The translations under genes were made by a program, and so were the position numbers. Below are positions 5,171 through 24,729 of a stretch of 64,000 bases of DNA, piece by piece. The DNA lies in NCBI GenBank assembly GCA_028716845.1, contig JAQUPF010000013.1, positions 890 to 64,889 of the forward strand. Direction: 5' to 3'. The stretch comes from a bacterium. Lineage in GTDB: Bacteria; Auribacterota; Tritonobacteria; UBA1439. Positions within the stretch are counted from its first letter, which is position 1. Each line of letters opens with the position of its first letter. The notes below the pieces were generated by a model. That model searched no databases and had not been told where the DNA came from. It saw only the letters and a program-made list of their open reading frames with translations.

Positions 5171-6478
5171 TCACCGCCCCCCGCGCCCCCGGCGCGCGAG
5201 CATCGCGTCGAGGACGATCTCGTTGATGGCATCCATCTCCTCGCTGCTCACCCTGCCGAGGTGCGCGAGCGTCTCCTCGAGCGTCCGCCCCAGCAGGCCG
5301 CCCTCCGGCACGGCGATGCCGCCGCGCGCGGCGAGGATGCCGTGCTCCACCGCGAGGCCCGCGCCGTGGCCGAGCTTGAGCGCGCAGGCGGGCCGCGCCC
5401 CGTCGCAGAGAACGCAGGAGAGCGCGGCGAGCATGGCGTTCGCCGCCGCCGTGATCTCCGCCCGCCCCCCGCCGAGGAGGCATGCGATCCCCGCGGCGGC
5501 GCCGGTGGAGGCGGCGAGGACGCCGCCGCACAGCGCCGACCGCCTCCCGATCGACTCCTTGATGCGCACGTTGAGGAGGTGGCTGAGCGCCGTCGCCCGC
5601 CGGACGGCCCTCCCGTCCGCGATCCCCTCCGCCCGCGCCGCGACGACCACCGGCACGGTGGCGGCGATCCCGCAGTTGCCGCTCCCCCCGCTGCTCATGA
5701 CGGGGAGGGGGACGCCCGCCATCCGCGCCTCGACCGCGGCGGCGGTGAGGGCCGCCGCCTCGAGCGACGCCGTCCGCGGGAGGCAGTCGAGCATCCGCCG
5801 GCCGAGGGAGAGCGGGAGCCGCTCCCGCAGGCCGCGGCGCGCGATCCGCATGTTCATCTCGATGCCGCGCCGGATGAGCGCCTCCTCGCGCGGCCCGAGC
5901 GCCGAGGCCATCTCGAGCATCCCGTCGAGCGTGAGGCGGGAGAAGTCCCGCCCGGCCCCGCCGGCCCCGCCGCCGCCCCGGCGGGCCGCCGGGAGCGGCT
6001 CGCCGTTCACCCTCACGGAGGCGATGTTCGTGTGGAAGCGCCGGATCACCACCTCGGCGGTCCCCCGATCCGTCTCGGCCGTCGCCTTCACGAAGAGGCC
6101 GTCCGGCCTCCTCGTGAGGCGCACCTCCACCCGCCCGTCCCGGACGAGCGCCCGCGCCCGCGCCCGGTCGCGGGCGCCCACCCGGCCGATGACCTCGAGG
6201 CCGCGGCCGGGCCTCCCCGCCGTGTAGCCGAGCGCGGCCGCGATCACGTTGCCCCGGTGCGGGGCGGCCCAGGGGACGCCGACCTCGAGGCCGTTCTTGA
6301 AGGTGTCGCGGTCGACCGCGACGCGGAGCCGCCGCAGCCTCCCGCCGAGCGCCTCGCGGGCGCGGGCGGACGCGAGCGCCACCGCGATCGGCTCCGTGCA
6401 GCCGAGGGCGGGGGCGAGCTCCAGCCGCAGGATGTCGCCGATCCGTCCAGCCGCCGGCGCGCGCCTCATCGACTCCAT
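5171..6478 (-). CDS. L-cysteine desulfidase-like protein (UPF0597/YhaM/CdsB, serine-dehydratase-alpha-like fold)
   Basis: About 435 aa from MESMRRAP. The ALGCTEPIAVALA motif is characteristic of the YhaM family. N-terminal extension of the annotated ORF rejected. Confidence 0.7.
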   Translation of the reverse strand: MESMRRAPAAGRIGDILRLELAPALGCTEPIAVALASARAREALGGRLRRLRVAVDRDTFKNGLEVGVPWAAPHRGNVIAAALGYTAGRPGRGLEVIGRVGARDRARARALVRDGRVEVRLTRRPDGLFVKATAETDRGTAEVVIRRFHTNIASVRVNGEPLPAARRGGGGAGGAGRDFSRLTLDGMLEMASALGPREEALIRRGIEMNMRIARRGLRERLPLSLGRRMLDCLPRTASLEAAALTAAAVEARMAGVPLPVMSSGGSGNCGIAATVPVVVAARAEGIADGRAVRRATALSHLLNVRIKESIGRRSALCGGVLAASTGAAAGIACLLGGGRAEITAAANAMLAALSCVLCDGARPACALKLGHGAGLAVEHGILAARGGIAVPEGGLLGRTLEETLAHLGRVSSEEMDAINEIVLDAMLARRGRGGR

Positions 6479-6780
6479 GGCGGCCCTCCCCGCATCGTGT
6501 AGACGCCGCCCTCGATGTGGATCGCGCAGCCGTCCACGATCGCCCGGGCGACCTTCCGCCGCGCCTCCGAGAGGATGCGGCCGAAGGTCTGCCGGGAGAC
6601 GCCCATGAGCGGCGCCGCCTCCTCCTGCCCCTTCCCCTCGGCGTCCGCGAGGCGGAGCGCCTCCATCTCGTCCATGGTGAGGTGGATCTCCGTCAGGTCG
6701 GTCATCGGTATCCCCCGCGGCTTGAAGAAGTACGCGCCGGGGACGCCGTTCACGAACCGGCATTTCTTGGGTCTGGGCAT
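6466..6780 (-). CDS. DUF134/UPF0251 family putative DNA-binding regulator
   Basis: 104 aa. MPRPKKCRFV N-terminus and LTMDEMEALRLADAEG...QEEAA..MGVSRQTFGRIL sigma-70-region-4-like HTH. Confidence 0.85.
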   Translation of the reverse strand: MPRPKKCRFVNGVPGAYFFKPRGIPMTDLTEIHLTMDEMEALRLADAEGKGQEEAAPLMGVSRQTFGRILSEARRKVARAIVDGCAIHIEGGVYTMRGGPPWSR

Positions 6781-6794
6781 CGCTTCCCTCTATT

Positions 6795-6810
6795 ATGAGC
6801 ATACGCTCAT
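6795..6810. promoter_or_regulatory. Perfect 6-4-6 palindrome ATGAGCATACGCTCAT just upstream of the DUF134 RBS
   Basis: Seen directly. Lies 15-30 nt upstream of the DUF134 start codon, at the edge of a 370-bp AT-richer intergenic region. Confidence 0.4.
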
Positions 6811-6988
6811 TACATCGGGATGTCAAAAGGAAAATGCAATGAAACAATTCACCACGGATTGGCGCCGATCATTACGGATCCGCGCGGATCCGAATTCCAC
6901 CTACGAGGTGGCCTTGGAAGGGGCTGAATATACTGCAACAAAGAGTGCCTAGGCGATCATTATAATGTAGGCAGTGGACAAAAGCAGT

Positions 6989-7029
6989 ATGGGGTCAGAC
7001 CTTCACTATTAACCAAGGCAGGAGCGCCC
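6989..7029. repeat. Copy 1 of a near-identical 41-nt element ATGGGGTCAGAYCTTCACTATTAACYAAGGC... (second copy at 20147-20188)
   Basis: 38/41 identity between the two loci 13 kb apart. Both copies are followed about 60-70 nt later by a GATACGGRNTGCGAACGRCG motif. Confidence 0.7.
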
Positions 7030-7152
7030 AAGCGCCGAATCGCACGAGTGCTCCGACCGCTCATCGCCCAATCGCCGATTAAACCGCGAGATACGGAATG
7101 CGAACGACGAACTGCGTTTACAGGATCCGCGTTCATCCGCGGCTGGACCTCG

Positions 7153-7440
7153 CTACGGCCGCCTCTTCGCGATGGCGGCGACGCCCGCGGCGGCGGCGAA
7201 CGTCAGGAGCGTCCCCAGGGCGCCGGCGGCCGCGGTGGCGAGCCCCTCCCGCCCGACGCCGGGCATGGCGTAATCGGGGACGGGCGCGGCGAGCGCCGGC
7301 TCCCCCTCGCCCCTGTGGAGGAATCCCTTGTCCTCCGCGACCCGCTCGAGGCCGTCCGGGCGCGGCGAGGCGAACGGCGAGAGGAAGACCGCAAGCACCA
7401 TCGAAACGGCGAGACCGGCGAGAACCGTCCGTCTGTCCAT
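7153..7440 (-). CDS. cbiN: PDGLE-domain small membrane protein (CbiN-like ECF transporter accessory component)
   Basis: 95 aa from MDRRTVLAGLAVSMVLAVF. PDGLE motif and two terminal TM segments. Immediately downstream of cbiM. Confidence 0.65.
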   Translation of the reverse strand: MDRRTVLAGLAVSMVLAVFLSPFASPRPDGLERVAEDKGFLHRGEGEPALAAPVPDYAMPGVGREGLATAAAGALGTLLTFAAAAGVAAIAKRRP

Positions 7441-7442
7441 GT

Positions 7443-8081
7443 TCAGCCCCTCCCCCCCTCGTAGATGAGATCCGGCCGCACCGCGAGGACGAAGGAGAGG
7501 ACGAGGCAGGTGATGACGGCCTCCCCGACGCCGATGAGCGCGTGGACGGCGAGCATGGCGGGGAGCACGACCCGGAGAGGGGAGGTGCCCGACAGGGCGA
7601 GCTGCAGCGCGCAGGCCGCGCTCGCGAGGACCACGGAGCACCACGCCGCGACGGCCGCCGCCGTCAGGATCCGCCCCCGCTCGCGGGACGATCCCCGCGC
7701 CGCCGCGTAGATGAAGTAGGCGAGCGCCGCCCCGATGAACGCCATGTTCACCACGTTCGCCCCGAGGGCGGTGAGGCCGCCGTCCTGGAACACGAGGCAC
7801 TGCACGATGAGGACGACGGCGATCACCGCGACCGCGCACGCCGGCCCGAGGAGCACCGCCGCGAGCGCCCCGCCGATCAGGTGGCCCGAGGTGCCGCCGG
7901 CGACGGGGAAGTTCAGCATCTGCGCCGCGAAGATGAAGGCGGCCATCACCCCCATGAGCGGCACCGCCCTGTCCTTGAGGGCGCGGCCCGCCGCGCCGAG
8001 CGCCCACCAGAGGCCCCCTGCACCCGCGATCCAGAGCGGGCCCCAGACCCGCGCCGCGAGAAAACCGTCAGGTATGTGCAT
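7443..8081 (-). CDS. cbiM: CbiM/NikM substrate-capture component of a cobalt/nickel ECF transporter
   Basis: 212 aa. Canonical MHIPDGFL N-terminus. Polytopic. GGAGGAG RBS. Confidence 0.85.
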   Translation of the reverse strand: MHIPDGFLAARVWGPLWIAGAGGLWWALGAAGRALKDRAVPLMGVMAAFIFAAQMLNFPVAGGTSGHLIGGALAAVLLGPACAVAVIAVVLIVQCLVFQDGGLTALGANVVNMAFIGAALAYFIYAAARGSSRERGRILTAAAVAAWCSVVLASAACALQLALSGTSPLRVVLPAMLAVHALIGVGEAVITCLVLSFVLAVRPDLIYEGGRG

Positions 8082-8131
8082 CGCTCCTCCCCCCTTGCCT
8101 GAATGACCGCAATGTCCCTCTCTCAAACGAT

Positions 8132-15658: not shown

Positions 15659-18177
15659 GGATCGCCGCCCTCCCGCTCCTCTGCCTCCTCCCGGGCCTCC
15701 TCCTCGTCCGGGCCCTGGACTCCCGCGGCCGGATGCCGGCCGGCCTCGGCGCCGCCGGGCGCCTCGCCGTCGCCGTCCTCGCGAGCGTGGCGGCGACCTC
15801 CTGGATCGGCCTGCTCCTCGCCCAGTGCGCCCTCTTCTCGCTCGGCGCGGTCGCCGCCGTTCTCCTCGCCGCCTGCCTTGCGCTCCTCCCCGCCGCCCGC
15901 CGCCCGCCGCCGCGGCCGGCCGCCCCGCTGTCGCGCGCCGCGGCCCTCGCCGCCGCCATCCTCCTCGCCGCCGCGGCCCTCCTCTTCTCGCCGCCGTACG
16001 AGTACGTCCTCGGCAACTGGGACCCGGGGACCTATGTGAACACGGGCGTCCGGCTCGCCCGCGAGGGGCGCATCAACTACCGCGACCCGGTCCTCGCCGA
16101 GATCCCGGCGGACGCGCGGCCGCTCTTCTACTACACCCATCTCATTCCCCAGCGCTACGAGGGCGGCGTCGCCGTCGCCGACGGCGACCGGGCGGTCGTC
16201 TCGCCCCACTTCTACCATCTCTTTACCGTCTGGATCGCCCTCATGGCCGCGATCGGCGGCGTCGGCCTCGCGCTCCGCGCGAACCTCCTCTTCGGCCTCC
16301 TCTCACTCGTCGCCGTCTACGCCGCCTGCCGGGAGGTCTGCGGCAGGCGCGCCGCCCTCGCCGCCGCCGTCTTCCTCGGCGCGAGCGCCGCCCAGATCTG
16401 GGCCGTCCGCTTCCCGACCGCCGAAATCCCCGCGCAGTTCTTCCTCCTCGCGGGCCTCGCCTGCCTCCTCCGCCACGAGGGGGAGGAGCACCCGCTCTGG
16501 GCCGCCCTCGCGGGCGTCTCGTTCGCCTGCGCGCTCCTGGCCGTCTTCACCGCCGTCACCGTCCTCCCGCTCCTCCTCCTCGTCCTCTTCTGGCGCAACT
16601 GGGAGCGGTGGCGGCGCGCCGACCGCTGGCTCGCCGTCCCCCTCGCCGCCGGCGTCGTCCACCTCGCCCTCCAGAACGCCACCGTCAGCCGGCACTATTT
16701 CGAGCGCCAGGTCGAGGTCCTCCGTTCCAACGGCATCACCCCCCTCCTCCTCGCCGCCGGCGCGGCCCTCTTCCTCGCGGCGCTCGTCGCGGCGCGGCTC
16801 TTCGGCAGGGGGCTGCGGGGACGCATCCGCTCCCTCGCCGCGCGTCCCGCCGCCCGCGCGGCCGCCTGCGCCGCCATCGCCGCCCTCTTCGCGTACGCCT
16901 ACTGGATCAGGCCGGCGGTCGCCGCCGGGCCGGACGCCCGGAACCTCCGCGAGCTCGGCTGGTTCGTGTACCCGGTCGCCCTCGGCCGCCTCTACGTCCC
17001 GCTCGGCCTCCTCCTCGCCCTCGCCGGAGCGGTCGGCGTGATCGCCCGGCCGTTGGACGAGCGGCGCGCGACGTTCCTCCTCATCGCCCTCGCCTCCGCC
17101 GCCGCCATCCTCCACCGGAAGATGGTCTTCCCCTCCTACTTCTGGGCGGTCCGGCGCGCGGTCCCGATCGTCCTCCCGTCGCTCTTCATCCTCATGTCGT
17201 GCGCCCTCGCGTCGCTCGCCGTCCCCCGCCGCGCGCGCTCCGCCGTCGCGGCGGGCCTTGCCCTCCTCATGCTCGGCTGCATGCTCGGCCGGTACGCCCC
17301 GCCGGTCATGCGGCCCGACTACGAAGGCACGACCGCCTTCATCGCCGCCCTCGCCGCGCGCCTCGACCCGGACGGCCTCCACATCGTCGAGGGGAGCGGG
17401 ATGGCCTCGCCGCTCGACAACATCCACGGCCTCGACGTCCTCCAGCTCTCCGGCCAGACGCCGGAGAAATGCCGCGGCGTCGAGCGCGTCGTCGGGGATC
17501 TCCTCGACCGCGGCCGGCGCGTCTACTACGTCTCGCGCGGCGGGCGGCCGCTCTCCGCCGTCCTCGACTTCGCCCCCCTCTTCGAGCTGCCGCTCTCGAC
17601 GGACTCCCTCGAGCACAGCGTCGGCCGGTACCCGTCGCGCCGCGTCCCCGTCCGCGTCACCGCGCGCGTCTTCCGCGTCGGGCGGCTCGATGCCGAGCCG
17701 GCGGACGCGGGCGGGGAGGGGACGATCGACATCGGGGAGGACGCCTTCGGCCTCCTCCGCGGCTTCCACCGGCCCGCGATGCGCTGGGAGCGGGAGGGAG
17801 GCCGGCGCGTCCGCCGCTGGGCGCGCTGGACCGCCCCCGACGCCGAGCTCCTCATCCCGTCCTTCGGCGGCCGGCGGGACCTCGCCGTGACGATCCGGGC
17901 CGCCGCCGGCAGGAACCGCCCCGGCCTCCCCGTCCCCGTCCGCGTCTCGGTCAATGGCCGGGAGGCGGCCCTCCTCCGGGTCGCCGGGGGGATGGCCGAC
18001 CACGAATTCACCGTCCCGGCCGCCTCGCTCGCCCCCGGCGCGCCGCGGGCGGCGCTCCGGATCGAGACCCCCGCCTGGAGCCCGCCCGGGGGGGAGCATC
18101 CGGAGGGCCTCGGCGTCTTCGTCGAGCGGCTCCTCGTCGCGCCGAAGGATGGGACGCCCGCCCCTCCGGGGATGTGA
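15643..18177 (+). CDS. GT-C-fold integral membrane glycosyltransferase-like protein, paralog B
   Basis: 844 aa. Same architecture and conserved blocks as paralog A (NWDPGTYV vs GWDSGEYV, RINYRDP vs RIVYRDE). Confidence 0.65.
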   Translation: MAHALRIAALPLLCLLPGLLLVRALDSRGRMPAGLGAAGRLAVAVLASVAATSWIGLLLAQCALFSLGAVAAVLLAACLALLPAARRPPPRPAAPLSRAAALAAAILLAAAALLFSPPYEYVLGNWDPGTYVNTGVRLAREGRINYRDPVLAEIPADARPLFYYTHLIPQRYEGGVAVADGDRAVVSPHFYHLFTVWIALMAAIGGVGLALRANLLFGLLSLVAVYAACREVCGRRAALAAAVFLGASAAQIWAVRFPTAEIPAQFFLLAGLACLLRHEGEEHPLWAALAGVSFACALLAVFTAVTVLPLLLLVLFWRNWERWRRADRWLAVPLAAGVVHLALQNATVSRHYFERQVEVLRSNGITPLLLAAGAALFLAALVAARLFGRGLRGRIRSLAARPAARAAACAAIAALFAYAYWIRPAVAAGPDARNLRELGWFVYPVALGRLYVPLGLLLALAGAVGVIARPLDERRATFLLIALASAAAILHRKMVFPSYFWAVRRAVPIVLPSLFILMSCALASLAVPRRARSAVAAGLALLMLGCMLGRYAPPVMRPDYEGTTAFIAALAARLDPDGLHIVEGSGMASPLDNIHGLDVLQLSGQTPEKCRGVERVVGDLLDRGRRVYYVSRGGRPLSAVLDFAPLFELPLSTDSLEHSVGRYPSRRVPVRVTARVFRVGRLDAEPADAGGEGTIDIGEDAFGLLRGFHRPAMRWEREGGRRVRRWARWTAPDAELLIPSFGGRRDLAVTIRAAAGRNRPGLPVPVRVSVNGREAALLRVAGGMADHEFTVPAASLAPGAPRAALRIETPAWSPPGGEHPEGLGVFVERLLVAPKDGTPAPPGM

Positions 18178-18209
18178 TACCATTGTCTTCCGGAAACGGA
18201 GGAGAACCC

Positions 18210-19184
18210 ATGAACCGCATCGGAAGGATCGCGGCGATCGCCGCCTGCGCTGCCCTCGCCCTCTCCGGCGCCTGCGCGCGCCGGACGGTGGCCGTCGAGT
18301 ACCGGCTCGAGAAGGGGGAGGAGCTCCGCTACTCGATGAAGACGAGGGGCGACGGCGTCACAAGGATGCCGGCGCTCACGGAGCGGCAGCAGGCGACCGA
18401 GGTGCCGTCGAAGATCGAGATGGACCTCGTCTGGCGGATGAAGGTCACCGACAGGGACGCCCGCGGCGTCGCCACGATCGAGGCCCTCTTCGAGACGTTC
18501 GCCCTCGAGATGGAGAGCGGCGGCATGCGGATCCGCGTCGAGGCCGACGAGTCGGGCGCCCGGCTCGTCCAGGGCGAGACCGTCATGCAGGACGCCCCGG
18601 GCCTCGAGGAACTGAAGGACGCCTTCCGGAACCCGTCGGTCGTGACGATGGACAAGCGCGGCCGCATCCTCTCCATCGACGCCCCCGGCGGGGCGGGGGC
18701 GCTCATGCCCCACACCGACCTGAACGCCTTCCTGAAGGAGAGCCAGTTCGTCATCCCGGAGGGGCCGATCGCCATCGGCCGTTCCTGGCGCGAGTCGCGC
18801 GACCTCCCGGTGGGCGAGGCGCTGAGGCTCCCCGAGGGGAAGGAGATCCGCCTCGACACGCGCTACACGCTCGCGGGGGTCGTCACGCGGGCCGGGCGGG
18901 AGTGGGCCGAGATCGCCGTCGACGGGAAGGCGGAGGCGAAGGCGCTCGAGGCGGAGCTCCCGCAGGCGGGCCGGATGAAGATCGTCTTCGACCGGCTCCT
19001 CCAGGCGGTCTCGGGGACGGTCTACTTCGACCTCGAGCGGGGCTGCGTCGCCGAGGCGGCGATGGAGACGAAGAGCGAGCAGGAGGTCACGCGGATCGTG
19101 CGGCGGCCCGGGAGCGACGAGGAGGTCCGCCTCCCGACCGTCGCCCGGATGACGATGGCCTCCGAGATCAAACTCCTCGAGTGA
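18210..19184 (+). CDS. Secreted/lipoprotein-like hypothetical protein
   Basis: 324 aa from MNRIGRIAAIAACAALALSGAC. GGAGGAG RBS. Confidence 0.6.
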   Translation: MNRIGRIAAIAACAALALSGACARRTVAVEYRLEKGEELRYSMKTRGDGVTRMPALTERQQATEVPSKIEMDLVWRMKVTDRDARGVATIEALFETFALEMESGGMRIRVEADESGARLVQGETVMQDAPGLEELKDAFRNPSVVTMDKRGRILSIDAPGGAGALMPHTDLNAFLKESQFVIPEGPIAIGRSWRESRDLPVGEALRLPEGKEIRLDTRYTLAGVVTRAGREWAEIAVDGKAEAKALEAELPQAGRMKIVFDRLLQAVSGTVYFDLERGCVAEAAMETKSEQEVTRIVRRPGSDEEVRLPTVARMTMASEIKLLE

Positions 19185-20143
19185 TGGAAGCCCTCACCGA
19201 CCTCACGCTGCCCGTCAGGGGGGAGTTCGACGGCGTCGAGCGGCTCGTCCACTCCGCCTTCTCCTCGGCCGCCGAGGCGCTCGGCGACCTCGAGCGCCGC
19301 GCCCTCCGGCACGGCGGGAAGCGGATCCGGCCGGCGGTGACGCTGCTCGCCGGGGCCGCGGCGGGCCCGCTCGGCGACGGCAACGTCCGGCTCGCCGCCG
19401 CCGCCGAGCTCATCCACACGGCGACGCTCGCCCACGACGACGTCATCGACGGCGCCGCCCTCCGACGGGGCCGCGCGACGCTCAACGCCTCCTGGGGCGA
19501 CCACGTCGCCGTCCTCTTCGGCGACTACCTCCTCGCCCGGGCGTTCGAGATCCTCTGCGGCGTCGGGGACGACGAGGTCCTCCCCGCCGTCGTCGGGATG
19601 ACGCGCCGCGTGTGCGAGGGGGAGATCCGGCAGACCCGCCGCCGCTTCGACATCTCCATGACGGAGGGGGAGTACCTCGAGATCGTTTCGATGAAGACCG
19701 CCTCCCTCTTCTCGACCTGCTGCGCCCTGAGCGCGGCCCTCGCCGGCGCCTCCGCCGCCGCGGCGGCGTCGGCCGGGCGCTTCGGCGAGCGCTTCGGCGT
19801 CGCCTTCCAGATCGCGGACGACTGCCTCGACGTCAACGGCGCCGAGACGGGCAAGGACCGGTACAAGGACATCGAGGCGGGCAACGTCACCCTCCCCATT
19901 ATCAAGGCCCTCGCGCTCCTCGACGGCGCCGACCGCGAGGCGTTCGCCGTCGCCTTCCGCGGCTCCGACGTCAGGCGCTGCCGCGCCGCGATCCTCGCGA
20001 GCGGGGCGCTCGCCGAGTGCGCGACGGACGCCGCCCGGATCATGGACGAGGCGCTCGCCGAGCTCTCCGCCCTCCCCGATTCCGCCGCCCGACGGTCGCT
20101 CGCGGAGATCGCCTCGATCGTCCTCCGCTCCACGGCCCCCTGA
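19184..20143 (+). CDS. Polyprenyl diphosphate synthase (trans-isoprenyl diphosphate synthase family)
   Basis: Both aspartate-rich motifs are present: AHDDVID and ADDCLD. TGATG overlap with the upstream gene. Confidence 0.85.
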   Translation: MEALTDLTLPVRGEFDGVERLVHSAFSSAAEALGDLERRALRHGGKRIRPAVTLLAGAAAGPLGDGNVRLAAAAELIHTATLAHDDVIDGAALRRGRATLNASWGDHVAVLFGDYLLARAFEILCGVGDDEVLPAVVGMTRRVCEGEIRQTRRRFDISMTEGEYLEIVSMKTASLFSTCCALSAALAGASAAAAASAGRFGERFGVAFQIADDCLDVNGAETGKDRYKDIEAGNVTLPIIKALALLDGADREAFAVAFRGSDVRRCRAAILASGALAECATDAARIMDEALAELSALPDSAARRSLAEIASIVLRSTAP

Positions 20144-20146
20144 CGC

Positions 20147-20188
20147 ATGGGGTCAGATCTTCACTATTAACTAAGGCCGGACCGCCCC
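20147..20188. repeat. Copy 2 of the 41-nt ATGGGGTCAGAYCTTCACTATTAACYAAGGC element
   Basis: Starts 4 nt after the polyprenyl synthase stop. See copy 1 at 6989. Confidence 0.7.
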
Positions 20189-20378
20189 ATCGTTTCCCGC
20201 CGACCGGGCAGCAAGATACGGGCTGCGAACGGCGCCCTACCGCTCTGTAATCCGCATCGCCGCGTGGTCACGTCTCCATTCCCACTCGCTACTCGGCACT
20301 CGCCACTCCCCTGCATTTCCCCCTTTACACGGACAGGCCGGCCGTGTATAATAGTTCAGACAATTGGATCTGCACTAC

Positions 20379-20455
20379 TGCGGGGTGGAGCAGCCAGGAA
20401 GCTCGTCAGGCTCATAACCTGAAGGTCGCAGGTTCAAATCCTGCCCCCGCTACCA
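20379..20455 (+). tRNA. tRNA-Met (anticodon CAU), initiator-like
   Basis: 77 nt ending in CCA. Near-identical in backbone to E. coli tRNA-fMet (GCGGGGTGGAGCAGCC...CTCATAA...GGTTCAAATCC...CCCCCGC). 1:72 mismatch and A11:U24. The anticodon stem has two, not three, G:C pairs. Coordinates +/-2. Confidence 0.85.
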
Positions 20456-20459
20456 ATAT

Positions 20460-20492
20460 GGCCTTGGGCTCCAGCCCAAGGCCATTCATTTT
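20460..20492 (+). terminator. Hairpin GGCCTTGGG-CTCCAG-CCCAAGGCC followed by a T-rich tract, directly after the tRNA
   Basis: 9-bp GC-rich stem followed by ATTCATTTTC. Confidence 0.5.
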
Positions 20493-20493
20493 C

Positions 20494-20778
20494 ATGACGC
20501 CTGGCGCTTACTATGTCTATGTCCTTTGGTCTGAATCCAGCGCGCGATTCTACATCGGTGTCACGGACAATGTTGTCCACCGTGTGGCCCAGCACAATGA
20601 AGGATTGTCGAAATGGACCCGTGACAGGGGTCCTTGGGAATTGGTATGGCAGCGGTTCTTCCCGACCCTTTCAGCGGCACGGCGTTTCGAGAATCTCCTG
20701 AAGCGGCAGAAGGGAGGAAATGCATTCTTTGAATATACCGCGTTGAACAAGCGCAAGTTCAGGTTGGCAGGCTCATAA
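20494..20778 (+). CDS. Small GIY-YIG nuclease family protein (COG2827-like, about 94 aa)
   Basis: YYVYVLWSESSARFYIGVTDNVVHRVAQHNEG...WELVW...FENLLKRQK matches the GIY-YIG / URI-domain mini-endonuclease family. The stop codon TAA lies inside the duplicated CTCATAA anticodon-loop sequence. Confidence 0.75.
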   Translation: MTPGAYYVYVLWSESSARFYIGVTDNVVHRVAQHNEGLSKWTRDRGPWELVWQRFFPTLSAARRFENLLKRQKGGNAFFEYTALNKRKFRLAGS

Positions 20779-20828
20779 TCCCGCTGAGCGGGATCGCAGG
20801 TTCAAATCCTGCCCCCGCTACCAATATG

Positions 20829-20863
20829 AAAGGCCGGAACACCCGTTCCGGCCTTTATTTTCA
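20829..20863 (+). terminator. Rho-independent terminator AAAGGCCGGAAC-ACC-CGTTCCGGCCTTT followed by ATTTTC
   Basis: 12-bp stem plus U-tract immediately after the partial tRNA copy. Confidence 0.6.
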
Positions 20864-20992
20864 GGCATTTCCCTTATATTGACACATTCACCCTCTTTTC
20901 CTGAAACACCCCGAACATCCTGAAAAACCCCAACCTCTACTATTTGCTACGAATATACGGTCACGCGCGCGAGGAGAGATGTCATCGGTCGG

Positions 20993-21265
20993 TCAAAACC
21001 AGCCACGGAGGGAACGGATTATCCAGCCACTTTGAAAGAGGGGTAAGCCCTGTAGAATCCCCGCCCAGAAAGGGCGGGTACTACAAATGGCATGGTGGAA
21101 ATCTTCGCGGCCGGGCTGGAAATAGTGCCTGAGGACGATCTCCGTGGTCTTGTGGCCGGTGACCTTCTGGACGAGCTCCGTGGGGACGTCGGCCGTTGCT
21201 GACGAGACTCGGAAAATGGCTGATACGATCTCGAAGGGGATACCACCTTTCACCCTCAGCTGCAA
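20993..21265 (-). pseudogene. Truncated tyrosine recombinase (phage-type integrase) C-terminal fragment
   Basis: The minus-strand translation ...SATADVPTELVQKVTGHKTTEIVLRHYFQ matches the integrase box II region (G-VP-E-VQ-LLGH---TT--Y-H). No upstream catalytic-domain ORF. Lower-GC surroundings. Confidence 0.5.
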
Positions 21266-21603
21266 CTCTTGTTCTTTTTAAGCGGTAGGGAAAAGTCGGG
21301 ATTGTCCTGCAATATTATCTCTTTACAATTCCGGAATATCGGCTTTACAATACCACAGAGAGCAGGAGTTCACTTCCCAACGCTAGGTCGCCGGCGCTGG
21401 CGTGACGCGGAGGGGGCGTCCTCCATGAACGAGAGCGGGCGCTCTGTGTTGATGCGGTCGAGGGCCGACCCCGAGCACAGCAGGCCAAGGGCCCGCTACC
21501 CGGTCATTCCATTTTCCCCTGTAGTCATCTCGTCTTTCTCCGCAAGTTGCACTGATTCCACCACCATCCTCATTGAGTACCATGCCGCGCATTTGGAGGC
21601 GTC

Positions 21604-24600
21604 ATGAAAACCATCATTGCGGCTGTCTTACTCCTTGCGTGCCTGCTCGGCCCTCCGCACGGCATAACTTACGCGCAGCCGACCGCCACGCCGACGCCGG
21701 TGGAGCGGGTGGTCGAATTCGGCGGCCGGTCGATAGGGATGATTTCGACGTCCGACGGCCGCTACCTTTACGTGAGCGACAAGAAAAACGCCCGCGTGTC
21801 GCGCTTCACCCTAGCGACTCTCTATCGCGTTGACATCACGGTCCCCGGTTCACCCGGCAGGCTCGCCCTGAGCCCCGACGAGAAAAAACTCTACATCGCA
21901 CAGAGCGAGGCCTCGTCCCTCGCCGTGCTGGACACGCTGACACATGAACTCAAGTACTGGGACCTTGATGGCAATGTCCCGAAGGATGTCGAGGTGACGG
22001 ATAACCGGGTGTACATCGCGGCAAACACCAACCCCTTCGCCGCGCTCGTGATACTCGATGCTTCGGACGGGTCGGTAATCACCGTGTATGGAGAAACGGA
22101 CTGGCCCTACGGGACAGCGCTCTTGGAGCTTGATCGGGTTCAATCTAAGCTATACGCAGCGAACATGGGAATAGGTCCCGCCACGCTTAGCCGGTGGGAC
22201 GTATCTTCAGACACGCCAATACGCGAGACATACAGCCGTGATCTGGGGTCGAATGGACAAAACCTGACGCTAAGCCCCGACAGCATCCATCTCCTTTTCA
22301 TAACTGCGGGCAGCAGCAGTGTTCTCAATCTCCTTGCCTTATCAGAACAATTCGCCGAGCACGAAGGGCAATTCGACATAGGAACATATCCCCGCGACAT
22401 GGTCTTGAGTCCTGACGCCTTGACCGCATTCGGCATATCTGGAAGTTCGTCCGACAAGGAAATGAAGATCTTTGATACGACAAACAGGGAGAGGATAGGG
22501 ACCGTGATGCCGTCTTACGCTCATTATGAAGAGCGGCCCCAGAAACTTTGCATGAGCGGTGACGGAGCGTATCTCGCGCTGTATGCTGAGCGGGACAATT
22601 CAGACGGCAATCTCTATATCTTTACCTTCAGCCCCCCTGCCCCTACACCATCGCCGACCCCGACATGGCCGCCTGGTGAGCCCACCCCTACACCAACTGT
22701 GACGCCTGCCTCGACGCCAACTGTCACGCCGACCCCGACGCCGATTGAACAGGTCGTACCATTGGGTGGCCGGTCGATCGGGATGATCTCCACGTCCGAC
22801 GGGCGTTTCCTCTATGTGAGCGACAAGAACAATGATCGCGTGTCGCGCTTCGAATTTGAGACCCTGGATCGCGTTGACATCACTATTGAAGGCGCACCTG
22901 CCGGAGTAGCGCTGAGCCCCGATGAAAGGAAACTCTACATCGCACAAAGCGAGGCCTCGTCCCTCGCCGTGCTTGACACGTTGACGCATGAAATAGAGTA
23001 CTGGGACCTTGAAGGCAACGTCCCGAAGAACATCGAAGCGTCCGATGACCGGGTGTACATCGCGGCAAACACCAGTCATGACGCCGCGCTCGTGATACTG
23101 GATGCTTCGGACGGGTCGGTAATCACCGTGCATCAAACGGATTGGGACAGCAACACCGGACTCATCGAGCTAGACCGCGACCGCGCGACATTATATGCGG
23201 GAGTTATTGGCTCGAGCCCAAGCGCGCTCAGCCGGTGGAACATGTCAACCGATACTCCCAGTCGCGAGACATATAGCCGTAATCTGGGATCGAATGGGCA
23301 GAACCTGACGCTCAGCCCCGACGGCCTTCACCTCCTCTTCATGGTCGGGGGTGGTAATAGCGGCTATATAGTGTTCTATCTCAAAGCCCGATCCGACGGG
23401 TTTCTGTCCCGCGACGGTGCCTTTGATATCGGGATATATCCCCGCGACATGGTGTTCAGTCCCGACGGCTTGATCGCATTCGGCATAAGTGGAAGTTCAT
23501 CGGACAGGAGCATAAAGATATGTGATGCGACAACCCAGGTGATATTGGGAACACTGATGCCCTCCTATATGCATTCATATGAGGAACAGAGAATACTCTG
23601 TATGAGCGGCGATGGATCGTATCTTGTGCTATATGCAGAGCGTTTGGACTCCGATGACGACGGCCACTTATACTTTTTCTCATATCCCATTCCACTGCCG
23701 ACGCCCACGCCGGCCCCTTGCACCGAACCTCTCAGGCTTGCCGATGTGGAAAACATGGTAATTCCGGTAACTCGATCAGAACATCAAGAAGGATTTTACT
23801 ATGTCTTGGCATGCGCCGAGGACGTGGAGGGAAGGCAGTACGGGTTCATCCATGACAACCTCAACGACTTCGCGGACGGGGATGACTGGCCCCTGCAGCC
23901 CGTTGCGGTGTACGTCGGTGCGGATAATGACGATATACGGGTGGAGGAGGGTGACGTCATCGAGGTGACGTACGACAGCGGCTCCTTCATGCGAATCTAC
24001 TTCCCCGGTCTTGTTGGGGAAGAGGACAAGATCTTTTATGTGGGCGCGGACGGATCGACATACTGGGACCGGAAGTTGTGCAACGTCGCCTATGCCGCCC
24101 CGACCCCGACCCCGACGCCGACGCCCACGTTCACACCCACGCAGACACCGACAGCAACGCCGACAGAGACACCCACCTTCACGCCAACACCGACCGACAC
24201 CCCAACCCCGACGCCGACCGACACGCCCACGCCGACGCCGACCGACACGCCCACGCCGACGCCGACCGACACGCCCACGCCGACCAGCACTCCGACGCCC
24301 ACGCCGACCAATACGCCGACACCGACTCCGGGCTTTGCAGAGGGTGTTGAAATCGATCTGAACGGAGCGTCATTCGGGGAGGGGGACCCGATCCTGCTGC
24401 GGGCAAAGGTGACGATCCCAATATGGACGCGGTTCGATGCCTATTTGCTCGCCGACACGCCGATGGGGATCTTCACCCTTCTGCTCGATGGGCGCACCGT
24501 GGGCGGGATCCATCCGATCGCGAGGAATGTCCCGAGGATCGACGCCCCATTCGAGGCGACGGTGCTGAACATGCTGCCGTGCCCGGCGGGAATGGGCGGG

Positions 24601-24729
24601 ACGACCTGGTTCTACCTCGTTATCGTGGAGGCGGGCAGGATGCCTCCCGTGAGCAAGCCCTCGGACCTGAGCCTCGAGACGGAAAACGTCATCGCCATGG
24701 CCGCGAGGATGATGACCGTCGTGCCGTAG
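21604..24729 (+). CDS. Large secreted protein (1041 aa): two tandem ~330-aa YVTN-type beta-propeller repeat modules separated by Pro-Thr linkers, plus a C-terminal domain
   Basis: Signal peptide [24 protein letters not shown]. Module 1 (aa about 30-330) and module 2 (aa about 380-690) are about 60-70% identical ([14 protein letters not shown][YF]LYVSDK...[21 protein letters not shown]). TPTPTPT linkers. Noticeably lower GC than flanking genes. Confidence 0.8.
24190..24283 (+). repeat. 24-bp tandem repeat x4 (CCGACCGACACGCCCACGCCGACG) encoding (PTDTPTPT)n inside the beta-propeller gene
   Basis: Seen directly. VNTR-like, in frame. Confidence 0.8.

Follow-up and report, generated by a model that had tools for sequence, protein, structure and literature searches.

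A minimal GIY-YIG nuclease gene fused to a disabled initiator tRNA copy: a putative tRNA-linked cassette in at least four bacterial phyla

In phage T4, SegB is a free-standing GIY-YIG gene within a tRNA gene cluster (PMC2330249). Islands integrated in tRNA genes (tDNA islands), as collected by Islander, feature a regenerated tRNA gene and a displaced tRNA 3′ fragment (PMC4383910), and VapC toxins cut tRNA-fMet, the initiator tRNA, in the stem-loop of its anticodon (PMC4705866). Here, we describe a locus in which an initiator-type tRNA gene is followed by a short GIY-YIG open reading frame (ORF) that runs into a partial second copy of the tRNA. It lies in a bacterial contig (GenBank JAQUPF010000013.1, assembly GCA_028716845.1; Auribacterota, Tritonobacteria, UBA1439), of which a stretch of 64,000 nt (positions 890 to 64,889, forward strand) was analysed; this stretch is called the window, and coordinates without a locus label refer to it. 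Integrase-less derivatives of tDNA islands are known as cis-mobilisable elements. The tyrT distal repeats of Escherichia coli, 178 bp in length, carry the tRNA 3′ end and a small basic ORF, Tpr, while in type III toxin-antitoxin systems of the ToxIN type, structured RNA repeats and a nuclease gene are parted by a terminator.

Judged from its sequence, the locus appears to be one copy of a widespread cassette that resides on the initiator tRNA gene in at least four phyla. The cassette has three parts: the tRNA-fMet gene with its promoter, a minimal GIY-YIG gene of the SLX1/UPF0213 type, and a disabled copy of tRNA-fMet (here called the pseudo-tRNA, or the module) that carries a hairpin, H. We see in it a probable member of a new family of tRNA-linked elements, not local debris. 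The cassette is apparently undescribed so far; searches of full-text literature on GIY-YIG/tRNA genes and on COG2827/YhbQ/UPF0213 gave no description of the arrangement.

The intact tRNA-Met(CAT) gene with an encoded CCA (20379..20455, forward strand) was called by ARAGORN and matched the Rfam tRNA model with 62.3 bits, in a scan covering 20000–21700. It is followed by a terminator-like hairpin of 12 bp, found by repeat and promoter inspection (20458..20493, forward strand; hairpin at 20458–20485), whose UCAUUUUC tail abuts the start codon of the ORF. Both features had been recognised in an initial annotation of this DNA, as had the gene that comes next (20494..20778, forward strand), encoding a COG2827-type GIY-YIG nuclease of 94 amino acids (aa; NCBI MDD5557446.1), which matches PF01541 with 56 bits (E = 4.5e-15) and has its best relatives, in sequence and in fold, among UPF0213 proteins.

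The ORF ends in GGC TCA TAA, and its stop codon (20776–20778) indeed lies inside a tRNA repeat, where it equals U36, A37 and A38 in a copy of the anticodon loop. This copy, segment B (CAGGCTCATAA; 20768..20778, forward strand), is identical to tRNA positions 28–38 (20407–20417) and encodes Gly-Ser plus the stop; weaker tRNA similarity extends back to 20761. Directly downstream, the pseudo-tRNA has the 15-nt hairpin H, TCCCGC-TGA-GCGGGA (TCCCGCTGAGCGGGA; 20779..20793, forward strand), where the intact tRNA has CCTGAAGG (positions 39–46). Segment C (20794..20828, forward strand) comprises the T-arm, the 3′ strand of the acceptor stem, ACCA and five more nt, ATATG. These 35 nt are 100% identical to 20426–20460, and no such match occurred in the 100 shuffles that served as the null. 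What had been taken for one duplicate of 56 nt is thus not continuous: blocks of 11 and 35 nt are identical, and they are parted by non-homologous sequence, H standing in the place of positions 39–46. The claim that the repeat runs through the tRNA 3′ end and a second terminator likewise holds for the 35 nt and for the presence of a hairpin, AAAGGCCGGAAC-ACCC-GTTCCGGCCTTT ATTTTC (20829..20862, forward strand), with a T-run and typical of the clade, but the two terminator hairpins (20458–20485 and 20829–20862) differ in sequence. The 365 bp between the window repeats hold the GIY-YIG ORF only. Within the second segment (20760–20830), no tRNA was matched by Rfam at E-values up to 1 and none was called by ARAGORN. 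A group I intron or split-tRNA reading of the locus was discarded, as the upstream tRNA is complete, 365 bp are too few for a ribozyme and the second copy is without the 3′ strand of the anticodon stem.

A scan with one genome per species identified 167 relatives, the best 80 of which were examined (L001–L080, cassette loci from species genomes, to which counts out of 80 refer). Most belong to Verrucomicrobiota; the others represent Planctomycetota, Lentisphaerota, Kiritimatiellia and Acidobacteriota. One carrier is the cultured Verrucomicrobium sp. BvORR034 (L018, contig NZ_BATQ01000041). At 70 of the 80 loci, the ORF is followed by H and by the T-arm, acceptor strand and ACCA, and 55 also have an intact tRNA-Met(CAT) gene directly upstream on the same strand, near-identical to the tRNA in the window. 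The stop codon abuts H in 75 of 97 ORF copies surveyed, and 57 copies end with Gly-Ser. The neighbours are housekeeping genes (e.g., FGGY kinase, DUF72, ribosomal protein S2), with no recurrent integrase or transposase among those of the 80 loci. The initial annotation had interpreted the repeats as scars of successive integrations and decay; the fusion of ORF, pseudo-tRNA and H, kept at 70 of 80 loci without a recurrent integrase, speaks against this, and the second segment largely corresponds to what that annotation had named as the contrary case, an independent tRNA-like structural element. Its suggestion of a minimal tRNA-associated element fits better: the GIY-YIG gene lies between tRNA-derived direct repeats, and the 97 tRNA-fMet genes sampled (see below) include occupied and unoccupied ones.

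The 77 distinct modules surveyed share one plan, TAA-TCCCGC-N2-7-GCGGGA-(T/C)C-T-arm-CCCCGC(A/T)-ACCA. The stem of H, a permuted version of the acceptor-stem sequence, does not vary except for one compensatory variant (TCCGGC/GCCGGA, in L029), the loop varies from 2 to 7 nt, and the T-arm has three covarying pairs. In relatives, the tRNA similarity of the module can reach back to position 9, e.g., in L038, where the ORF ends with EQPGSSSGS followed by the stop, encoded by GGAGCAGCCCGGTAGCTCGTCAGGCTCATAA. This reach indicates that the module is a copy of the whole tRNA-fMet in which the ORF has taken the place of the 5′ acceptor strand and H that of positions 39–46. We counted 131 copies of H within 700 nt of a GIY core versus eight in 974 kb elsewhere, and six of these eight constitute ORF-less modules. 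That H could be a REP-like repeat dispersed throughout genomes was rejected, since the 64-kb window has a single copy and, elsewhere, H is all but absent outside cassettes. An extra H takes the place of the T-loop in L001, L011, L015, L024, L040, L066, L082 and L202, and that of the D-loop in L078, while L060 and L065 show a nested H. In L010, L041, L044, L061, L066 and L080, a terminator with the stem CCCCGC/GCGGGG, also acceptor-stem sequence in permuted order and H-like, stands 5–10 nt after the CCA of the genuine tRNA; such a terminator is a possible source of H. ARAGORN calls H-bearing pseudo-tRNAs as tRNAs in L002 (3238–3322; tRNA-Arg(CCT), 85 nt) and L057 (2770–2852; tRNA-Met, 83 nt), and H-bearing modules are likely mis-annotated as tRNAs in public genomes. 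The Rfam hits MicC, AaHKsRNA41 and Acido-Lenti-1 on the terminator hairpins were dismissed as sub-threshold noise, the genuine tRNA alone scoring.

By sequence and by structural model, the encoded protein belongs to the SLX1/UPF0213 (COG2827) branch of GIY-YIG nucleases and is not I-TevI-like. Sequence matches were obtained to BH0048 (1zg2, E = 3e-10), EF2693 (1ywl, 4e-8) and SLX1 (9e-6 to 2e-3). The AF2 model (pLDDT 89) has the beta-beta-alpha-beta-alpha order of the GIY-YIG fold; with Foldseek, the nearest folds are those of UPF0213 protein BH0048 and SLX1 (TM 0.62–0.66, 30–41% identity), and the catalytic domain of I-TevI is a poor match (E = 1.3–3.2). Of the catalytic residues, Y9, Y20, G22, R30, H34 and E66 are invariant, and N67 is nearly so, in an alignment of 33 homologues. 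According to Pfam and AF2, the 94 aa consist of the nuclease domain and a short helical tail: the C-terminal RING/PHD zinc finger of SLX1 is absent, and there is no DNA-binding module beyond the catalytic domain. NCBIfam gave no match, PHROGs weak matches only, and PADLOC weak matches to a GIY-YIG domain only (PDC-S14, E = 1.5e-4). Nearly all of 32 homologues with 45–70% identity have a C-terminal Gly-Ser, and among the 1,195 cluster representatives retrieved with the family profile at E ≤ 1e-10, many end in GS or read through the module (AHNPAxAGSxVQI...). To judge from such peptides, VEQSGSSLGS-like tails would mean that the ORF is fused to a tRNA-fMet of the kind with three G:C pairs, and would thus indicate further phyla. 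The median dN/dS was 0.26 over 102 pairs, diverged tandem copies inside one genome included; the GIY-YIG ORF is under purifying selection.

These data bear on the plainest explanation, that of an ordinary neighbour gene beside a chance or decaying tandem duplicate of the tRNA, devoid of meaning. Tandem initiator tRNA genes are common in bacteria, e.g., metZWV in E. coli, and pseudo-copies can decay. Nevertheless, the recurrence of fusion and hairpin in at least four phyla, the restriction of H to cassettes, a perfect repeat of 35 nt that is non-random and the purifying selection on the ORF make this explanation highly improbable.

Upstream of the tRNA in the window, a sigma-70-like sequence, TTTACA-17-TATAAT (20324..20352, forward strand; 11 of 12 consensus matches), ends some 27 nt before the gene and may well function as its promoter. 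No Shine-Dalgarno sequence precedes the start codon of the window ORF, and the same succession of hairpin, T-run and ATG recurs at many related loci. In many relatives, a mere 6–20 nt lie between the tRNA CCA and the ATG, too few to accommodate a promoter of the ORF itself. As to the tRNA, which we take to be near-identical to E. coli tRNA-fMet except for U1·U72 and A29:U41, the initial annotation had correctly noted the U1·U72 mismatch and an anticodon stem with only two G:C pairs, and had deemed the tRNA unusual. The 1:72 pair is marked as non-canonical in the Rfam match; however, 81 of 102 tRNA-fMet genes of the U72 type, collected from metagenomes (L085–L204), have U at position 1 (19 have C and two have A), and A29:U41 occurs in every tRNA-fMet gene of the 80 genome loci. 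U1 and A29:U41 are the norm for the lineage of the window tRNA and not aberrant. In Opitutaceae (L003, L009, L015, L021, L024, L040, L048 and L058), the tRNA-fMet reads UGCAGGG...CCCUGCA-C-CCA, with a Watson-Crick U1-A72 pair and C73, which is odd for a bacterial initiator.

The T-arm and acceptor sequences of the module vary between lineages, with compensated pairs, yet they match the neighbouring tRNA genome by genome. The 3′ part of the module equals that of the tRNA over at least 28 nt without mismatch in 40 of 58 loci, often past the CCA and into the terminator, and the hybrid T-arms of L026 and L027 suggest conversion. Tandem arrays were found in L062 (six to seven units at ~330 nt), L073 (five) and L076 (three), and L027 has ORF-less modules of 60 nt in tandem. 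Solo modules have arisen by internal deletion of the ORF in L025, L026, L029, L049 and L202; in all, L025, L026, L027, L029, L049, L197 and L202 carry ORF-less solo modules. A peculiar case is L197, where at least three tandem units of 114 nt (1–360) occur upstream of a normal tRNA-fMet gene, each with the tRNA leader, tRNA positions 1–38 with an altered D-arm, H, half a T-stem and unrelated sequence, in that order; no GIY-YIG ORF was detected on the 10.7-kb locus. Many cassette loci are situated at the very end of a contig (e.g., L003, L004, L006, L010, L012, L020, L024, L031, L043 and L050), as is expected for repeats, and L043 and L079 are two contig ends of one metagenome-assembled genome; these positions suggest that cassette arrays break short-read assemblies.

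Occupancy was assessed in a metagenome scan for tRNA-fMet genes of the type with U72 and A29:U41, which provided 97 complete genes with at least 300 nt downstream. An ORF cassette was present at four of the 97, ORF-less H modules only at two (L197 and L202), and 91 were unoccupied. Occupancy is patchy, with a presence/absence polymorphism at a conserved tRNA-fMet target. For the species of the window itself, there was no orthologous empty site, as no sampled locus has the same flanking genes; a Logan contig of the same strain (L081) ends just past the integrase fragment described below. In L092, L107, L113 and L146, however, a terminator of the type GGCCGGAAC...GTTCCGGCC is located directly 3′ of an unoccupied tRNA-fMet gene, while in the window and in L082, which has an identical stem-loop, the clade-typical terminator comes after the module and not after the intact tRNA. 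The native 3′ flank would therefore have been displaced to the right of the cassette.

Our tentative preference, at somewhat below an even chance, is for a long-lived selfish cassette that uses the tRNA promoter for its expression and persists through recombination among the tRNA-derived repeats. The ORF, without a promoter of its own, would be transcribed by read-through from the tRNA promoter via the leaky hairpin, and tRNA processing would free the mRNA from the precursor. The SLX1-like nuclease would then act on structured or branched DNA at the tRNA repeats, heavily transcribed and rich in palindromes, and the resulting breaks could be repaired off the tRNA-derived direct repeats. Such repair would keep the repeats alike (concerted evolution), raise or lower the number of units and permit loss without a scar, and the cassette may occasionally be copied into an unoccupied tRNA-fMet gene when homologous DNA meets. 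H would prevent the second copy from working as a tRNA and, probably, from serving as a site of recombination or cleavage.

A number of observations sit less easily with a selfish cassette. Neither the viral contigs of IMG/VR nor the plasmids of PLSDB contain relatives. The protein tree broadly follows phyla, with few exceptions (L036 and L054), and Chthoniobacterales keep a single syntenic context (DUF72 - tRNA-fMet - cassette - tRNA-Asn), which together point to mostly vertical descent. Purifying selection over long times characterises useful genes more than homing endonuclease genes that have become fixed. The protein lacks a domain for site-specific DNA binding such as those of I-TevI and Seg, and its fold match to I-TevI is poor (E > 1). 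Since the intact tRNA, the presumed target, stays beside the nuclease gene, the homing logic by which insertion destroys the site does not apply. Finally, L082, the closest relative (70% identity), shares 84% of the module and terminator sequence with the window versus 56% of the third positions of the ORF, which hints at a function of the non-coding part in its own right. L082 has a different context and a decayed upstream tRNA, and retains ORF, module and terminator. On its 3′ side (5658–8083) lie a PIN/RHH (VapBC-like) pair, an AAA_14/DUF4143 ATPase and an ORF6N-domain gene, an island-like content; the proximity of a VapBC-like pair to a cassette, set against the cutting of tRNA-fMet by VapC (PMC4705866), may be a coincidence.

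The same data could be understood at the RNA level, in terms of a domesticated or regulatory cassette in which tRNA, mRNA and pseudo-tRNA form one precursor and the pseudo-tRNA is its functional 3′ element. It might be a processing or stability signal read by tRNA maturation enzymes, or a tRNA-fMet mimic that controls the nuclease, with a host that benefits or is addicted. We regard this as the main rival, possible but less probable than a selfish cassette. The 84% against 56% conservation and the persistence of ORF and module in L082 despite the decay of its tRNA are in its favour, as are the dN/dS of 0.26, vertical inheritance across an order and the short distance from CCA to ATG, by which expression would be coupled to the tRNA. 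An invariant H stem with loops of 2–7 nt suits a folded strand better than a binding site in duplex DNA, and the predicted RNA fold of the module (z = -4.2) forms H, the T-arm and the terminator. An alternative, acceptor-like pairing, GCGGG:CCCGC (97% paired), would produce a minihelix; hairpin and minihelix both fit the covariation data, and the stem of H hardly varies. The invariance of the stem yields no covariation proof of an RNA structure. Moreover, eight loci have a second H instead of the T-loop on which recognition by RNase P and the CCA-adding enzyme depends, about 4% of the sampled tRNA-fMet genes are occupied, and arrays and solo modules resemble the dynamics of repeats, not a tuned regulator.

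A more specific proposal starts from the parts of the host tRNA-fMet that the pseudo-tRNA keeps, i.e., the anticodon loop up to A38, the T-arm and the acceptor-CCA end. The pseudo-tRNA could be an uncleavable mimic of the initiator tRNA that restrains a GIY-YIG enzyme targeting the initiator tRNA, its gene or its transcription complex. We judge the proposal unlikely. If it were true, the cassette would couple translation initiation to a new kind of module for regulation or for addiction with an RNA antidote, and its nuclease might be the first of the GIY-YIG type to act on or through tRNA.

The initial annotation had also reported the C-terminal fragment of a dead tyrosine integrase about 170 nt beyond the cassette, which we could substantiate. 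A 90-aa ORF on the reverse strand (20993..21265) has homology over ~21071–21214, from box II to the region of the catalytic Tyr. The fragment matches neither Pfam directly nor NCBIfam, but it is 54% identical (E = 5e-18) to residues 340–391 of a 432-aa integrase in L038 (PF00589, E = 1e-15), and its closest homologues carry PF00589. About 50 homologous residues are left, with in-frame stop codons upstream, and the fragment is therefore dead. Integrases of the same family, all on the reverse strand, adjoin 5′-truncated tRNA-fMet halves that start at approximately CGTCA|GGCTCATAA in L038 (1486–2784), L159 (2603–3175), L074 (~1204–1500) and L174 (~1625–1930); among 113 tRNA-fMet matches sampled, eight are such halves. 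Integrase and tRNA half are followed by a GIY-YIG cassette in L038 and L159. The idea that the tRNA is an integration target is thereby upheld: the position of these integrases implies that tRNA-fMet is a genuine attachment site for them, in the anticodon stem-loop. A recurrent breakpoint in the anticodon loop (L018, L038 and L056) was considered as a trace of cutting by the nuclease and set aside, because integrase islands in the tRNA of a cassette better explain L038 and L159.

Against this background, the cassette might be a miniature tDNA island or the remnant of a cis-mobilisable element, with the tRNA as attL, the second segment as attR and a tyrosine integrase since lost. Its anatomy, a regenerated target with a displaced fragment, is that of Islander elements (PMC4383910), and the native-type terminator comes after the second copy. 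Many modules have the left limit of their tRNA similarity (TCGTCAGGCTCATAA) at the point where the half-tRNAs left by tRNA-fMet integrases start, and full or partial copies of the same integrase family are found beside cassettes in L038, L074 and L159, in addition to the fragment at 170 nt in the window. A displaced fragment should, however, be uninterrupted, whereas H replaces positions 39–46 and so removes one arm of the presumed core site. The content is constant, a gene of 85–100 aa that continues in frame into the fragment; the 80 loci have no recurrent integrase gene in their neighbourhood, and tandem periods of 330 nt and 60 nt are unlike the accretion of islands. In L038 and L159, moreover, the integrase island sits inside the tRNA of a cassette that was already there. 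An origin as an island hence has little probability in our estimation; the integrase fragment of the window is debris of an unrelated island, left by a separate event, and did not build the cassette.

Some further features of the window surround the locus. A perfect 14-nt inverted repeat, TTTTCATGACGCCT at 20489–20502 and AGGCGTCATGAAAA at 21597–21610 (chance expectation ~0.01), covers the start codons of the GIY-YIG ORF and of a gene for 1041 aa, bracketing the cassette and the integrase remnant. The latter gene (21604–24729) specifies a predicted secreted protein with two internal repeats of ~350 aa (YncE-like) and long Pro-Thr linkers, 100% identical on L081. Between the integrase remnant and this gene (21302–21351), two overlapping sequences that resemble promoters (TTGTCC/TACAAT and TTTACA/TACAAT) coincide with a direct repeat of 12 nt, CTTTACAAT(T/A)CC. 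On the other side of the cassette (15825–20250), Arg/Pro/Gly-rich ORFs of 1119, 729 and 212 aa overlap a polyprenyl-synthase-like gene that ends at 20143; such ORFs are typical by-products of alternative frames in G+C-rich DNA and were rejected as genes.

Bacteria cannot do without the initiator tRNA gene, and its sequence hardly varies; an element resident there has a target common to all of them. In at least four phyla, a fixed architecture links this gene to one for an SLX1/UPF0213 nuclease, a group whose bacterial members are without known role. If selfish, the cassette would be among the smallest autonomous units known (~330–370 bp) and would offer an integrase-free way to parasitise a tRNA gene; if regulatory, it would provide the first functional context for UPF0213 proteins and a tRNA-mimic RNA in bacteria. 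In practical terms, such cassettes break assemblies and yield mis-annotated ORFs and pseudo-tRNAs.

Of the known systems closest to the cassette, none has all four of its traits, namely an SLX1-type nuclease without further domains, a reading frame that passes into a pseudo-tRNA, a constant hairpin in place of tRNA sequence, and a site next to the initiator tRNA gene; several share some of them. The proteins SLX1 and UPF0213/COG2827 (BH0048, 1ZG2; EF2693, 1YWL; YhbQ type) are the best matches in sequence and fold and have the same catalytic residues, but SLX1 has a C-terminal zinc finger and an SLX4 partner, neither of which is found in the cassette, and the literature searched reports no link of UPF0213 to tRNA genes. 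Like SegB of T4, the cassette has a small non-intron GIY-YIG nuclease gene among tRNA genes that is present or absent between relatives, and in both cases spread is thought to need a double-strand break and repair from flanking homology. The Seg proteins, however, possess a region for DNA binding and cleave the gene-less genome at a defined site, whereas the cassette protein is a bare catalytic domain of 94 aa, encoded on a chromosome, fused to a pseudo-tRNA, adjoined by an intact tRNA and inherited mostly vertically.

With tDNA islands, the cassette has in common a regenerated tRNA and a displaced 3′ fragment as direct repeats, with the native flank at the far end; it differs by a unit of 365 bp, the lack of an integrase, a fragment that is interrupted by H and into which the ORF reads, and a content kept across phyla. 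The tyrT repeats, too, are tandem units 3′ of a tRNA gene with which they are co-transcribed, and every unit contains a short ORF and closes with the tRNA 3′ end; they encode no nuclease, however, lack a hairpin replacement and are not known to be conserved outside enterobacteria. In type III toxin-antitoxin systems, a terminator likewise stands between structured repeats and a nuclease gene; there, the nuclease is of the ToxN/AbiEii type and not GIY-YIG, a type known to act on DNA substrates only, and the repeats are upstream, whereas those of the cassette are mostly downstream. VapC, finally, was reportedly found by Winther and Gerdes in 2011 to cut tRNA-fMet after position 38, and it is right after position 38 that the pseudo-tRNA departs from the tRNA.

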